Positions 25,001-31,000 of a DNA stretch of 64,000 nt are shown here, one piece after another. The DNA is taken from NCBI RefSeq assembly GCF_048403405.1, contig NZ_CP183131.1; one strand, 5' to 3'. Origin of the DNA: Escherichia coli (GTDB lineage Bacteria > Pseudomonadota > Gammaproteobacteria > Enterobacterales > Enterobacteriaceae). How positions within the stretch are numbered: position 1 is the stretch's first letter; every line of letters begins with the position of its first letter. A program made the position numbers.

Positions 25001-28000
25001 TAACCAGTGATTGTTCATAGCCACCGGGAGCGAAGGCTATGGCGACTGCATCCTGGAGTTCTTCGGGAAGAGTCTGGATGAGTTTGTCCTCTGCGGCCTT
25101 TTCCAGTCGTTCAAACTCACGCTGCAAAACAGCGTTTGCTTTCTTGACCGGTGTTACAACATCCGAACAGAGAACCTCGGCTGCATCATGCAACGAAGCA
25201 TGAGCAAGCATGACTGCCAGATCCACCGACTTCCCTTGCTGAATGGCAATATTGCCAGCCAGGTAGGAAAGCAGGGTAACAACAGCGCTGTGTTCCAACA
25301 CAGACTCCGGTTGAACAGAGTGCATCAGTGACCAGCGTTTGATCAGGCGTTGGCGCAAGGCCAGAGCTAGAAAGCCGAAATTTGAATTAGACATAGTGCC
25401 TCCAAAATTGGTTGGAGGTACACCAAAGCCGACCGGGCCTTGGTGTACCCGGTTGGGTTACTTAGTTATCTCGGGTCAAGCTGCTTAGCTATAGCGAGTA
25501 AAAACGGATGGAATGGATGATCTTGCGGGACACCCCCAACAAGCTCACGGGCTAAACCGACTGAGTTTGTAGCCAACACCTCTTTGACGGCCAGAATGAT
25601 TTCATTGTCGATTTCATCCTGGGTCTTTCGTTGTTGGTCCACCAGCCGACTTAACTTGTCTAGGCTCATGCTTCTCTCCTTTGTTTGTGGGAGAGAACCC
25701 AGGAGGGGTTTCCTCCCGAGGGGTTAGGTTATTGCTGTTTTGGGCCAGCTACCGTTATAGCCAGCAAGCGCTGACAATGAACAAAGAGTATGACAGCCAC
25801 CTAAAAGGGTAAAACGCTGTAATTGCCCTTTTGGGGTGCAAAAGAAAAAGCCCTCCCGAAGGAGGGCTTTTTATGCGGCCAAGGACAAGCCTTGCTGTCC
25901 TCTTTGCAACTCTGTGTCGTCGCGGCGATGTAAGCGTTGAACCGCCTTGATCATCGTTCTGACATGTCGCTCCAAAGAGGCTGGATGGCGTTTTGACAGT
26001 AGGTTGATCCAGTCGAGATAGATAGCAAGCGCGGAACCTTCGGTTAGGGCTGCCTGTATCGCCTCATACTGCCCTACGGCACTCTGGACCACATCATTCA
26101 CCCACTGGGCGTCAGTATTGTCCAAGAGCTCGCAGAGGGCCGTATAAGCCTTCCTTCTGGTCGCGGCCATGTAACGACGAATGTTGGCGTTTCCGCTCCC
26201 CTCTCGCCCTTCCATGACGCTCATACAGAATGCGCTGGAGTAACAAAGCATCGCGTCAGTCACGTAGTTAAACCATCGCTCCTGATGCCGTTTCTGTTCT
26301 TCCATTGCTTCCTGGTCAAGTTGCTTCTCGATGAACAACCCCGTCGGAGTACGGTGGTGCAGATGGTACTTGAACGTTAAGTGCAAGTTGACCCACCAGC
26401 GTACCGTTGCCAGTCTTCCCTTGATTTTTCGCTTCACCAGATCTTTGTACTTAGCATCGCTAAGCACTTTGACATCCTTGCGCTGTTGGATTCCTTCCAT
26501 CGTCTGTAGCCCTGTAAGGCCCATCTGGTGGTAGGTTTGACCTCTTTGCATCATACGGTGATACAAAGCGCCTTTTCCTTTCGCAAGCTGGATTGCTCCG
26601 AACCGAAGGTAGAACTGCGCTGCACTACCGGGCGTATAATGTCCCTTTAGTACAGACTCCCTTAGTCGCGGGTATTCGTTCCAGATGATGAACGCAGCGG
26701 AGTCGGGATCGACTTTCACTTCATCATCTTCTGCGAAGCAAACCACCCTTCTCTTTCCGTCTGCGGTATTGATCACTTGCGCTGCCAACGGGTCATCCCC
26801 GCCGTCAAAGTAAGCCATTTCCGCTAACGGATCGGCCAAGCCATCAGAAAGCGAACCATCGCCCCAGCGACCAACCTTCAACCACAATGGCTTCGGAATT
26901 GGTGACTGAGGAACGGTTTCACACTGCGGCTCGTCTTCCAGCAAGTCCAGATCACCCATCGACCAAACCCTGTGGTAAATCTCCAGGGCATGGAAAGGCT
27001 TATCATTGAAATGATGGAAGGCCCACATGAAGTCGATATGGACTAAAGCCTCTTCCGATATGATCCGGAATTGTGGCTCTGCCATTCGACGGTTCCAGTC
27101 GTTATCCTCTGCTTGACCAGTAGCCAGCTTGTATGCCAGCTCATCAGCTCTCTTTTGCTCCATGTAGTCCATGCTGCAACAGACATGAAGCAATCGTTCT
27201 AGGAAAACAGGACTGTAAACGTCCGGCTGTATTTTGATGTATCCGCCCTCGTAAATCGTTCGACCTACGGGATGGCGGTCTTCCCATGCGTACCGGCGTT
27301 TTGCCAAGTAGCGCTGGATGCGGTTCAGCCCCGACATATAGCCATGCCTTTCAGGGTCCGTGGCAAGCAACGTCTCCATTGACTTATCCAACCCAACAGC
27401 CTGGCAAGCCCAGCAACCGAAGCGAGCGCCACAGGCGTCACTGGCCTTCTTCTCTGTTGCCGACCACACGCACTCCCCTGTTGCCGCCTTGTAAAGCTCT
27501 GCCGTAGTGACATTGCTCTCCAAGTAACTTGGCAGAGGATATGCTGAGCCCATGCCAGCGGATAGTAAGAACTCCCAGACATCACTCGCCAACCAGTTTT
27601 TCACCACATACAGCTCACCCCCATCTTTCGTCTTAATGACGCGATCTGAGCTTCCTCGCTGTTTTGCAATGTTGGCCGCACGAATAGTGCTTTCAGCATC
27701 ACGACTGCCCAGCAAAAGGCAGACTTTCTGTCGAACCTCTTTGGGAAGCTCTCGCATATAAGCTGCCTTCGCTCTTTTGGCAGAGGTGATTTTTAAATCC
27801 TGGCTACACTGGCGGGCCGTGGAGTTGGAAAACGTAGGCAACCCCCTCCCAGTAAGGATTCGGCCCGTCCAACTCTGCGAGATCCCAGGCTTTGCTAGAA
27901 CGATGGTCAGAGGAAGGTTTTCCTTCGCAATGAAACGCTCCAGCTCGGCCAGTTTCTGATCCGCCAGCCACCTTACCTCTGGGCTTTCGATCAGTGTGTC

Positions 28001-31000
28001 AGTGTGCAAGATGAAGTGGTGCTGGCTGATGGTCGCCCCACTCCTTACAGCCCGGATCAGGGCCATCAGGAACAGGTGCAAGACCGTTTCAGAATCTTTA
28101 CCACTGGAATAGCCGATCATCATGGTCCACCCATCAATTAAGGCCGTGTGAATGGACTCAACCGATGACGTGATCAACGATGACAGACTGGTTCCTCTAC
28201 TGGCATCAACGAAGTTCAAATCCTCGTTATCAGTCAGTTCTGACCAAACAGAATCCCACTTATCCCCACGCAAAAGCACTGGGATGGGTTGTTCTGATAG
28301 ATCAAAGTTTAATGTTTGTTGCATAGGGCCTCCTGGATTAGCAGGGTGCCCATCCCTTCCGGGAAAGCACCCCGGTAGGGTTAAAATTGAATCCTGGCTA
28401 TCAGACCTGAATGAATCGCCACGGGTTTAACAGACACCTCAGAGTCATTTAAGATGGCTTAAAGAGAGGTGCCCATGAGCGGTAAGCGTTATCCCGAAGA
28501 GTTTAAAATTGAAGCAGTCAAACAGGTTGTTGATCGCGGTTATTCTGTTGCCAGCGTTGCAACACGTCTCGATATCACCACCCACAGCCTTTACGCCTGG
28601 ATAAAGAAGTACGGTCCGGATTCTTCCACTAATAAAGAACAGTCAGATGCTCAGGCCGAGATCCGCCGTCTCCAGAAAGAGCTGAAGCGGGTTACCGACG
28701 AACGGGACATATTAAAAAAAGCCGCGGCGTACTTCGCAAAGCTGTCCGACTGAGGTACGCCTTTATCCGTGACAACACCTGTTGCTGGCCTGTTCGCCTG
28801 CTCTGTCGGGTGCTGGATGTTCATCCCAGTGGTTTTTACGCCTGGCTTCAGCAGCCGCATTCACAACGCCATCAGGCAGACCTAAGACTGACAGGACAGA
28901 TTAAACAGTTCTGGCTGGAATCGGGATGCATCTATGGTTATCGCAAAATCCATCTGGATCTGCGGGACAGCGGGCAACAGTGCGGAGTGAACAGAGTCTG
29001 GCGACTGATGAAACGTGTCGGGATAAAGGCTCAGGTTGGATACCGGAGCCCGCGAGCACGTAAAGGCGAAGCCAGTATCGTGTCGCCCAACAGGCTCCAG
29101 CGACAGTTCAATCCGGATGCTCCGGATGAGCGTTGGGTAACGGACATAACCTACATCAGGACCCACGAAGGCTGGCTGTATCTTGCCGTGGTTGTTGATC
29201 TGTTCTCACGCAAAATTATCGGCTGGTCCATGCAATCCCGGATGACAAAGGACATTGTCCTGAACGCACTGCTGATGGCTGTATGGCGGCGTAATCCCCA
29301 AAAACAGGTGCTGGTTCATTCGGATCAGGGCAGTCAATACACAAGCCATGAGTGGCAGTCGTTCCTGAAATCACACGGCCTGGAGGGCAGCATGAGCCGT
29401 CGCGGTAACTGCCATGATAATGCGGTTGCAGAAAGCTTTTTCCAGTTGTTGAAACGCGAACGGATAAAGAAAAAGCTCTACGGAACGCGGGAAGAAGCCC
29501 GCAGCGATATTTTTGATTACATCGAAATGTTTTATAACAGTAAGCGTCGGCATGGTTCTAGCGATCAGATGTCACCGACAGAATATGAAAACCAGTATTA
29601 TCAACGGCTCGGAAGTGTCTAGATTATCCGTGGCGATTCAGAACTAGCTGCTACTCGACATCTGGTTGTCTTCGTATTGCTGCTTGGCCTGTTTCACCAG
29701 ATCAATGTCACCGTCTTGCAGCTTTTGAATATCAAGCTGTAGACGAGCCTTGTGTTTCAACAGTTCAGCGACCGCATTATCAATGTGATCAATGAGCGAT
29801 TGGTTTTTTTGGATGGTGTAACTGTTGAGTTCATCGAGCAGGGGCCATGCAACACTCGAATGAGTGTTGAGCAATGGGTACTCTGCTTCGATCTCACAAA
29901 CCACACCGTTTGCTCCTTCTCTGTAATGAGGGAACCCGACACGCAGACCGATACGACGATCCAGCGCTGCATTTACAGTACATTCCAAAGAAGTTCGGTT
30001 TGAAAAAACATCGTTGACGTTTTTAGACATGCTATATCTCCGTTCAGTTTATGACGGAGCCCCCCTAACAGGAGGTGCTCCCGTCAGGGTTGATAATTTG
30101 CTGTTTGTTTTTGGCAGCCAGCTACCGCACTTGAGCGCCTAAGGCACTTTCCGAAGCACCCTGGGAAACCGAGATGCTTGGGAAAGCGCGGGGTTTCCCC
30201 CTGCGCTGATTACCCTTTTTAAGGGGCCGGTACGCCGATTTCTCGGCGCACTCAGGTTGAAGCTACACAGTCAAGAACCAACGTTTCATAGGGACGGTGA
30301 TGTCTATCATCCCGTTTCCACATGGATTCTGGCCCCAGAATCTGTAGGTCGTCTCATAGAAGTCAAACTCAGACAAGGACTGAATCTGCGCTTCTGAGAT
30401 CGGCTCAAATGGTCCACCGCAACCGATGTGCATATTGAGCCCATAATCTCGAAGCTCTAGCTCTCCGAGATTTAGCGTCTTCCCGCCCACACAAGCAACC
30501 AAGTTCTGGTTTCTGACGTCGCCTTCTTTGAACAGCAAAGCTGACTCATCGTAGCTCCCATATTGGTTGGTAAACTTCACAATATGCCCGTGCTTAGGTG
30601 AGGTTTGTTCCGACAACTCTTTCAGTAATCGCTTTACGCTTTGAAATCTCGCGTACAGAGCTGGCGTAAACTGCCCAGAGTAGTTCAAGTTTGGGCAGAT
30701 CATTTCAAGCATCTCATCAGGTACAGATTCAAGCCCCATTTGCGCGGCCAATGGCTTCGCCTTTTTCAGACCTTCCTCAAGCACTCTCTGATTTACAAGT
30801 TGTTCTAATGTGTTCATTTGACTCTCCACTTTCGAGAGAGCAATGCAAGCCGTCTCCGGACTTACATTGCCCGTTAACGGCTTTATTGGTTTATCCCAAG
30901 AGGTACGGAGCTACGCCAGTCAGGAAGCCCATGACTCCCAACACAGCGCCAACCACGCCCAATTTGATTGACAGTTGGACACTTTGATCCGGATGGTTCC

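Follow-up and report, generated by a model that had tools for sequence, protein, structure and literature searches.

An IS3-family insertion ahead of the DndC-like gene vcrx113 in an IncC plasmid sublineage, with a probable polar effect on that gene

In a plasmid of Escherichia coli an insertion sequence (IS) lies between two genes that are read in the same direction, directly ahead of a gene for an 817-aa protein resembling PAPS reductases. This raises the questions of whether the insertion is recent and what it does to the expression of that gene. The window analyzed here, a stretch of 64,000 nucleotides from contig NZ_CP183131.1, is IncC (IncA/C2) plasmid backbone, a multidrug-resistance plasmid type. 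Judged by sequence, the 817-aa gene is vcrx113 of plasmid pVCR94 and the 128-aa gene upstream of it is vcrx112. The insertion and its surroundings comprise the following features.

28412-29640, plus strand: IS3-family insertion sequence, 1,229 bp, intact, antisense to the surrounding operon
28412-28424, plus strand: left terminal repeat (IRL), 13 bp, TGAATCGCCACGG, perfect, with an imperfect match extending inward
29628-29640, minus strand: right terminal repeat (IRR), 13 bp, perfect
28409-28411: target-site duplication GAA, left copy
29641-29643: target-site duplication GAA, right copy, adjoining the vcrx112 stop codon
28475-28753, plus strand: orfA, 92 aa, encoding the HTH/leucine-zipper portion of the transposase
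28714-28721, plus strand: A7G slippery run, -1 programmed frameshift site
28720-29622, plus strand: orfB frame, DDE/rve catalytic domain, part of a 382-aa OrfAB fusion
29644-30030, minus strand: vcrx112 homologue of 128 aa, without a family match; the IS leaves its coding sequence undisturbed
28326-28380, minus strand: 5' leader of vcrx113 with two hairpins, the second of which pairs the Shine-Dalgarno sequence AGGAGG
25871-28324, minus strand: vcrx113 homologue, 817 aa, reading frame intact
25840-25872, minus strand: intrinsic terminator (12-bp stem, UUCG loop, U-tract), overlapping the vcrx113 stop codon
25821-25841, minus strand: AcaCD box TTGCACCCCAAAAGGGCAATT of the next unit, vcrx114-119
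38454-38474, minus strand: AcaCD box TTGCACCCGAAAAGGGCAGTT preceding vcrx098; going upstream from the 817-aa gene, the first AcaCD site reached

The element is a structurally intact member of the IS3 family (IS3, IS911, IS2, IS150 and relatives) and differs from it in nothing essential. It has the same 1.2 kb length, TG...CA terminal repeats, 3-bp duplication and DDE (rve) domain, and its orfA and orfB likewise lie in the 0 and -1 frames and are fused at an A-rich slippery run. Target duplications in this family are short (3-5 bp), and transposition proceeds by a copy-out/paste-in route via a circular intermediate that bears a junction promoter. The original prediction had described intact inverted repeats and a GAA duplication, and both are present on re-inspection: the two ends are identical at 13 of 13 positions, with partial matches further in, and they account for both copies of TGAATCGCCACGG found across the window, where chance would give 0.14. 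The frameshift site, also described as intact, does permit a -1 shift at the A7G run that yields a 382-aa OrfAB, open throughout; it reads TTA AAA AAA GCC in the orfA frame, however, giving a heptamer of A AAA AAA and not strictly the textbook A AAA AAG that had been given. OrfB alone scores 337.2 bits against the NCBIfam model NF033516 (transpos_IS3; cut-off 160), and its catalytic residues are found in WVTDITY (D), HSDQGSQY (D) and NAVAESFF (E). The RefSeq annotation of the transposase notes a 'programmed frameshift', and its PGAP label is only 'IS3 family transposase'. A promoter-like site of the IS itself (TTAACA-17-TAAGAT, 28427-28455) points inward. Many plasmids and chromosomes of Enterobacterales contain copies at 98-100% identity, with up to 16 in individual E. 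coli chromosome records, a multi-copy presence which shows that the element is active.

The insertion falls neatly between the two plasmid genes. The stop codon of vcrx112 occupies 29644-29646, so the 3-nt GAA copy alone separates that gene from the IS, as had been predicted. On the other side the distance from the IS end to the vcrx113 ATG at 28324 is 87 nt (rather than 88), and the leader of vcrx113, including the ribosome-binding site, is intact, with the IS 31 nt upstream of it.

Comparison with relatives that lack the IS gives a clear picture of its origin. When the IS and one GAA are deleted in silico, the resulting 797-nt sequence is matched base for base in the IncC plasmid CP014295, which carries a single GAA at this position; this exact empty site is far stronger evidence for transposition than the 3-bp repeat alone. 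The locus is present in 646 plasmids, about 580 of them IncC or IncA plasmids with the empty site. An identical insertion junction is found in 67 plasmids of PLSDB, distributed over at least four genera (Klebsiella, Escherichia, Providencia and Proteus), and in seven E. coli plasmids; CP028996 exemplifies the IS-bearing type. The sequences flanking the IS are 100% identical to those of the empty-site plasmids and of all other carriers, which supports an evolutionarily young insertion. The earlier description of the insertion as recent stands in that sense, but its occurrence in 67 PLSDB and seven E. coli plasmids makes it an inherited lineage marker and not a new event. Repeated, independent use of a target hot spot seems highly improbable as an explanation of this distribution. 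IS insertions are indeed frequent in the array: ISKpn18 has inserted independently within the vcrx113 coding sequence in plasmid pINF142, and a related locus has IS21-type and DDE_Tnp_1 elements elsewhere in its gene array. Yet all of the listed carriers share the orientation, the GAA duplication and 100% identity to junction queries of 2,029 bp and 6,501 bp, and the closest IS copies elsewhere are at most 99.8% identical. The insertion is thus real but ordinary: dozens of publicly available IncC plasmid sequences already contain it with annotation. Its use is mainly as a lineage marker, in the epidemiological tracking of one IncC sublineage, whose Klebsiella hosts include clinical isolates from Taiwan.

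What the insertion does to vcrx113 depends on how that gene is transcribed. Published RNA-seq of pVCR94 shows vcrx113 to be strictly AcaCD-dependent, with values for vcrx112 and vcrx113 of 0 and 6 in an acaCD deletion against 382 and 979 on induction, and published ChIP-exo reveals no AcaCD box belonging to vcrx113 and no AcaCD site anywhere between vcrx098 and vcrx114. The window agrees: its only two matches to the AcaCD box pattern are at 38474-38454, before vcrx098 and about 10 kb upstream of vcrx113, and at 25841-25821, which corresponds in position to the pVCR94 ChIP-exo motif at 86650-86678; none lies directly before the 817-aa gene. No sigma-70-like site was found on the minus strand from 29.6 to 38.6 kb, nor any -35/-10 match in the 87-nt spacer, which folds into two hairpins; a promoter there was considered and rejected on that scan. 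An Rfam scan of 18-47.5 kb found no known RNA family. The terminator at the end of vcrx113 has a folding energy of -22.7 kcal/mol, and none of 200 shuffled sequences folds equally well. The operon structure adopted here is based on Rockhopper predictions and the absence of motifs.

We propose that an active IS3-family element transposed once, with a 3-bp duplication, into the vcrx112-vcrx113 spacer of an IncC backbone, that the IS-bearing plasmid sublineage then spread among the four genera named above, and that vcrx113 expression was lost or reduced by polarity; we put the probability of this reading at roughly 0.6. The gene would be the final cistron of an approximately 10-kb AcaCD-activated unit that runs from P_vcrx098 to the terminator at 25872-25840, and it appears to have neither an AcaCD box nor a recognizable promoter of its own. 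Transcription through the IS would place 1.2 kb of untranslated antisense RNA before vcrx113, a classic substrate of Rho-dependent polarity, and expression of the gene would most likely be lost or strongly reduced. The IS anatomy, the empty site, the distribution, the terminator and the AcaCD boxes were observed here and the AcaCD dependence is taken from the literature; from these we infer the polar effect. Since vcrx113 is AcaCD-dependent with no box nearby, and a terminator and a new box follow it, the IS most likely cuts off that last cistron only. The effect, if any, should be confined to vcrx113, and the neighboring transcription units would be spared, since they are shielded by the terminator and by a distinct AcaCD promoter at vcrx114. 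The arrangement resembles the classic IS1 and IS2 polarity of gal and lac, in which the IS likewise lies antisense between co-directional cistrons and distal genes are expected to be cut off from their promoter; it differs in that polarity is deduced from the arrangement and concerns one distal cistron only, on account of the same terminator and independent promoter.

Two other outcomes for vcrx113 have to be weighed against polarity. The insertion may be transcriptionally neutral or mildly polar, with antisense read-through or a weak spacer promoter keeping vcrx113 expressed, and we regard this as possible though unlikely. The minus strand of the IS has no strong intrinsic terminator that we could find, only one weak terminator-like hairpin at 28739-28722, so appreciable read-through may persist, and the vcrx113 leader is intact. 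In pVCR94, moreover, vcrx113 RNA exceeds vcrx112 RNA 2.6- to 6.5-fold, which could reflect an unrecognized promoter near vcrx113 rather than differential RNA stability. Against this stand the established liability of untranslated RNA of this length to Rho, the hairpin-filled spacer, and the near-zero expression of vcrx113 without AcaCD even though no AcaCD box is nearby. At 29040-28963 the antisense RNA of the IS is also rich in C and poor in G (C/G about 2), a further point on the side of polarity. The 100% conservation of vcrx113 in all IS-bearing plasmids might be taken to indicate continued expression, but an insertion this young leaves no time for decay, and the conservation therefore says nothing either way.

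An outward-facing or hybrid IS promoter, as the original prediction had offered for the downstream gene, would uncouple vcrx113 from AcaCD and make it constitutive. IS3-family elements are well known to activate neighbors via -35 hexamers at their ends; in this family, as known from IS911, IS2 and IS3, it is IRR that holds the outward-reading -35 hexamer of the junction promoter. Here it is IRL that faces the gene, and IRR points away. Standard and relaxed (7-8/12) scans of the minus strand from 28300 to 28750 gave nothing credible near IRL, and no outward-reading site of at least 9/12 within the IS end. Weak 8/12 matches occur deep in the IS on the minus strand (such as CTGACT-15-AAGAAT, which has a TG, at 28646-28620), but the IS terminus is over 200 nt away from even the closest of them, and activation of vcrx113 from the IS is accordingly considered very unlikely. 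Polar loss or reduction remains the preferred reading, and the earlier suggestion that the IS cuts vcrx113 off from read-through of the array is indirectly supported by the published AcaCD dependence, the distant box and a spacer with no promoter-like site.

The 817-aa protein was predicted to join a PP-loop domain to a long uncharacterized C-terminal region, and this description is borne out. By sequence it belongs with the DndC-like PP-loop/Fe-S enzymes and has an extension specific to its family; its organization is as follows.

vcrx113 residues about 55-464: DndC-like PP-loop/Fe-S domain
vcrx113 residues about 465-635: conserved family-specific middle domain
vcrx113 residues about 640-800: variable helical tail

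The N-terminal approximately 400 aa match DndC profiles with E-values of 1e-35 to 1e-41. Among 52 homologues, S73, K76, D77 and S78 of the PP-loop motif SSGKDS are invariant, and G75 and the cysteine cluster C285/C298/C304/C307 are at least 90% conserved; the motif and the Cys cluster are points of resemblance to DndC, a phosphorothioation PP-loop/[4Fe-4S] ATP pyrophosphatase, and to other PAPS-reductase-fold enzymes (BrxP, SspD, CysH, FAD synthetase). Assignment to canonical DndC was nevertheless rejected: the ATP-pyrophosphatase PP-loop and the conserved cysteines expected of a [4Fe-4S] cluster are present, but the whole protein scores 119.8 bits against TIGR03183, below the cut-off of 290.4, and no dndA/iscS, dndB, dndD or dndE neighbor is found in the annotated 46-kb neighborhood or in relatives. 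Compared with DndC, vcrx113 has some 350 additional C-terminal residues (the middle domain, seen in this family only, and the helical tail) and stands alone, as a solo gene, in the conjugation-induced gene arrays of the MOBH-type plasmids IncC, IncA, IncHI1 and IncHI2. A BrxP of BREX type 4 was likewise rejected, the PADLOC models listed for the window protein being DndC and MTase_II only, with no BrxP match and no linkage to brxC, pglZ or brxL; no brx or ssp genes were found near vcrx113. Like vcrx113, IbrA of the IbrA/IbrB pair has a PAPS-reductase-fold domain at its N-terminus and is carried by a mobile element, and ParB/DUF3440-like partners had been suggested on similar lines; a Pfam search of the protein returned zero matches, DUF3440 included, and no ParB-like gene was found within 10 kb on either side, so this type was also set aside. 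Searches by sequence for relatives of solved structure gave marginal FAD-synthase matches only, and literature searches for vcrx113, IncC with DndC, and IncC with PAPS reductase returned nothing.

A further relative of vcrx113 is found in a Vibrio contig. As a speculative and rather unlikely proposal, vcrx113 may represent an uncharacterized family of DndC-like Fe-S PP-loop enzymes, long and solo, that belong to MOBH-type conjugative plasmids (and this Vibrio contig) and are switched on with the transfer genes. Such enzymes might modify the nucleotide pool or the DNA being transferred, so as to evade Dnd, BREX or restriction defenses of the recipient without Dnd partners of their own. If so, plasmids of the IS-bearing sublineage and the one disrupted by ISKpn18 would be natural loss-of-function variants. 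The IS probably acts as a clean, naturally occurring knock-down of just one gene, which is conserved, uncharacterized, DndC-like and conjugation-induced. The IS-bearing plasmids are still typed as conjugative and occur in several genera, and their successful spread indicates that vcrx113 is dispensable for maintenance and transfer among Enterobacterales under those conditions. The disruption of vcrx113 by ISKpn18 in pINF142 is a separate observation that further backs its dispensability.

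The window is backbone sequence of a conjugative plasmid of the IncC (IncA/C2) group, whose typing gives MOBH and MPF_F; its minus strand matches the plus strand of the pVCR94 reference. The 817-aa PAPS-reductase-like gene (25871-28324, minus strand) is assigned to vcrx113 (pVCR94 84172-86622), and the 128-aa gene upstream of it to vcrx112, from their order and lengths. The transposase of the insertion sequence (IS) is encoded on the plus strand, and the IS is therefore antisense to the long co-directional array of backbone genes. The features of the IS are:

28412-29640, plus strand: IS3-family IS, 1,229 bp, with terminal repeats at both ends
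28475-28753, plus strand: orfA, 0 frame
to 29622, plus strand: orfB, -1 frame, overlapping orfA at the A-run
28714-28721, plus strand: slippery run of seven A then G, in the orfA/orfB overlap
28409-28411 and 29641-29643: GAA flanks, at both IS ends

The element shows all of the testable defining features of the IS3 family. It opens with TGAATCGCCACGG and closes with that sequence's exact reverse complement—a repeat found only twice in 64 kb, at the two IS ends (chance expectation 0.14). The inverted repeats at the 28412 and 29640 ends are intact, as originally noted. A one-base slip back at the A7G run gives an open, uninterrupted 382-aa OrfAB fusion; the frameshift site noted earlier stands, but in frame the heptamer reads A AAA AAA, with the G next, not A AAA AAG. 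OrfB by itself reaches 337 bits against the NCBIfam transpos_IS3 profile (cut-off 160), and the DDE residues are recognisable in WVTDITY, HSDQGSQY and NAVAESFF. The IS lies as close to vcrx113 as had been claimed, but at 87 rather than 88 nt (ATG at 28324).

Removal in silico of the IS and one GAA leaves a 797-nt sequence with an exact match in the IncC plasmid CP014295, and the IncA plasmid CP132325 has the same junction without interruption at ~94% identity. Comparison with elements lacking the IS had been proposed as a check, and the empty-site match is the decisive test that the insertion is real; the proposed 3-bp duplication is likewise borne out, with GAA on both sides of the IS and a single GAA in the matching empty site.

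A 2,029-bp junction query (the IS ± 400 bp) is covered at 80% or more by 67 PLSDB plasmids; a 6.5-kb locus query matches 646, which include empty-site plasmids since 81% of its length remains without the IS. A junction search of complete E. coli genomes adds seven further plasmids with the insertion. Roughly one in ten IncC/IncA plasmids carries the IS, and the site is empty in about 580. Junctions are 100% identical in the 47 carriers listed individually (40 from the 6.5-kb PLSDB search, seven from E. coli), whose hosts are Klebsiella pneumoniae (some clinical, from Taiwan), E. coli, Providencia huaxiensis and three Proteus species. IS copies at other locations are at closest 99.8% identical. 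Up to 16 copies in one E. coli chromosome record, and insertions in many different genes, show clearly that the IS family is active. The distribution is most economically explained by a single, fairly recent insertion, after which the sublineage carrying it spread by conjugation. The original prediction of recency holds to the extent that the junctions are identical, but the same insertion is already in 67 PLSDB and seven E. coli plasmids. It is present and annotated in many public records, and surveys document IS3-family insertions in IncA/IncC backbones (PMC9709138, PMC7652850).

The transcriptional setting of vcrx113 can be read against published pVCR94 data from ChIP-exo, 5'-RACE and RNA-seq (PMC4207636). 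There, the nearest upstream site for AcaCD precedes vcrx098, and the next lies directly after vcrx113, before vcrx114; expression in the wild type, the acaCD deletion and with acaCD over-expressed is 46, 0 and 382 for vcrx112, and 298, 6 and 979 for vcrx113 (PMC4207636). The corresponding features here are:

38474-38454, minus strand: AcaCD box before vcrx098, TTGCACCCGAAAAGGGCAGTT
25841-25821, minus strand: AcaCD box before vcrx114, TTGCACCCCAAAAGGGCAATT
25872-25840, minus strand: intrinsic terminator (12-bp stem, UUCG loop, U-tract) overlapping the vcrx113 stop codon

These two boxes are the only matches to the AcaCD pattern in the whole window at up to three mismatches, and a scan of the minus strand between them found neither a sigma-70-like site nor a convincing terminator. 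The terminator folds at -22.7 kcal/mol, which none of the shuffles equals. Because of the box placement, the absence of sites between the boxes and the terminator at the vcrx113 stop codon, the likeliest reading is that an AcaCD-driven unit of roughly 10 kb ends with vcrx113 as its last cistron; the unit after it is insulated by the terminator and its own promoter. Terminator and box are compactly joined (25821-25872, minus strand), the U-tract running straight into the vcrx114-promoter box. Sigma-70 promoter-like sites are depleted at 29600-38600 (one found, none on the coding minus strand; 6.5 ± 2.3 in shuffles), which fits a single long transcript driven by AcaCD, with no promoters inside it.

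The IS would place 1.2 kb of untranslated antisense RNA ahead of this last cistron. We infer that the insertion is polar, probably through Rho, and that vcrx113 expression is lost or strongly reduced, with the effect limited to vcrx113 and the other genes spared (probability about 0.6). The main rival is substantial read-through of the IS, or an unrecognised promoter near vcrx113: the IS is without a strong antisense terminator, and in pVCR94 vcrx113 RNA exceeds vcrx112 RNA. Polar loss is favoured because the IS RNA is untranslated, because the 87-nt spacer retained by vcrx113 holds nothing but the two hairpins of its leader and the ribosome-binding site, a promoter scan of it being negative, and because a relaxed scan of the left-repeat (IRL) end gave no credible outward promoter, contrary to the suggestion that one might drive vcrx113. 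In IS911, IS2 and IS3 the outward -35 of the junction promoter sits in the right repeat (IRR), and the IRR of this IS faces away from vcrx113. The antisense IS RNA has a C-rich, G-poor stretch at 29040-28963, a weak hint compatible with Rho loading. Polar effects of an IS on distal cistrons are textbook knowledge and, with an IS typical of its family and an insertion in public records, the finding is real but ordinary.

In pINF142, an IncC plasmid of K. pneumoniae INF142 (NZ_LR890548, locus L005), ISKpn18—an independent, IS3-like insertion unrelated to the window IS—interrupts the vcrx113 coding sequence (locus 4700-6260) and shortens the protein. Truncated versions of the 817-aa protein are common in databases, and the IS-bearing sublineage has spread across genera. 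The IncC gene array tolerates IS insertions at many sites; in JBBFQR010000002.1 (L011) an IS21-type pair and a DDE_Tnp_1 element lie elsewhere in it (locus 92-1893 and 4380-5492). Together, these disruptions, truncations and the cross-genus spread show that full vcrx113 expression is not needed for plasmid maintenance or transfer.

Residues about 55-464 of the 817-aa protein match DndC profiles (NCBIfam TIGR03183, 1.3e-34, 119.8 bits, cut-off 290; PADLOC DndC, 1.4e-41); a Pfam search gave no match. Among 52 homologues, S73, K76, D77 and S78 of the PP-loop motif SSGKDS are invariant, and G75 and each cysteine of a cluster (C285, C298, C304, C307) are at least 90% conserved. The C-terminal analysis that had been suggested, using homologue alignment and a profile search of the last 353 residues against 1.84 billion representatives, found only 121 representatives and hence a small family. 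The middle domain (about 465-635) is conserved and follows the N-terminal domain in every full-length match, the latter DndC-like in all eight distant matches tested against PADLOC, and the tail after it is helical and poorly conserved. By sequence and fold the protein resembles a DndC-type PP-loop/Fe-S enzyme, but it differs from DndC proper in both score and gene context. An IbrA type was rejected (no Pfam match, no ParB or DUF3440 partners), as was a BrxP type (no Brx partners).

Close relatives are found on IncA, IncHI2 (pAPEC-O1-R) and IncHI1 (Q935R1) plasmids, and others on contigs of Aeromonas, Providencia, Moellerella, Photorhabdus, Shewanella and Vibrio, of which some are plasmids. 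Each is a solo gene within an array of small unknown genes; no Dnd, Brx or Ssp partner accompanies any relative examined, nor do the ParB/DUF3440-like partners that had been suggested. Homologues with 46-47% identity are:

L006 (DQ517526.1, pAPEC-O1-R, IncHI2) 6001-8385: solo, with small unknown ORFs around
L008/L009 (Vibrio) 6001-8490: adjoining a Prok-E2_D/ThiF pair (ubiquitin-like conjugation)

No partner gene is conserved between contexts. Also encoded in the conjugation-induced IncC array are two methylases (a Dcm enzyme and a second, putative one), a Fer2 ferredoxin, an HD-domain 5'-deoxynucleotidase and a primase. Several of these genes of DNA and nucleotide metabolism are grouped around the DndC-like gene (24789-25394, 31383-33008, 36136-37059 and about 35846-36070, minus strand): the nucleotidase is YfbR-like, the Dcm enzyme is a cytosine methylase of 541 aa, the second methylase is a faint N6/N4-methylase-like protein and the ferredoxin is of the YfaE-like 2Fe-2S kind. 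The grouping may serve DNA modification during establishment. That the 817-aa protein itself modifies DNA or nucleotides at this stage is a reasonable guess, if a long shot, in line with the recent suggestion that PAPS reductases on mobile elements are anti-defence genes (bioRxiv 10.64898/2026.07.27.740549).

The remaining interest lies in this uncharacterised family and in the leader hairpins. Almost every array gene (18600-46900, minus strand) is preceded by a two-hairpin 5' leader, in which hairpin 1 is short and GC-rich and the 3' arm of hairpin 2 carries the Shine-Dalgarno (SD) GGAG, stopping 2-5 nt short of the ATG:

ATGs at 22280, 23589, 25394, 25669, 28324, 30817, 36070 and 43254, minus strand: leader examples

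Of the 34 leaders in which an SD can be recognised, 24 have at least three of its four bases paired; the mean MFE of the leaders is -18.7 kcal/mol, compared with -10.8 at the starts of 16 other minus-strand ORFs in the window. Diverged vcrx113 homologues (L013-L016) keep the architecture with a different sequence, and an Rfam scan of 18-47.5 kb gave no family match; the leader may act in the AcaCD regulon as a module for translational control or RNA stabilisation. Elsewhere on the backbone (13557-17819, minus strand), a small immunity gene of the MafI family comes after the gene for a 1,420-aa Rhs repeat protein; the pair makes up a polymorphic toxin cassette and corresponds to the rhs already known in IncC plasmids.
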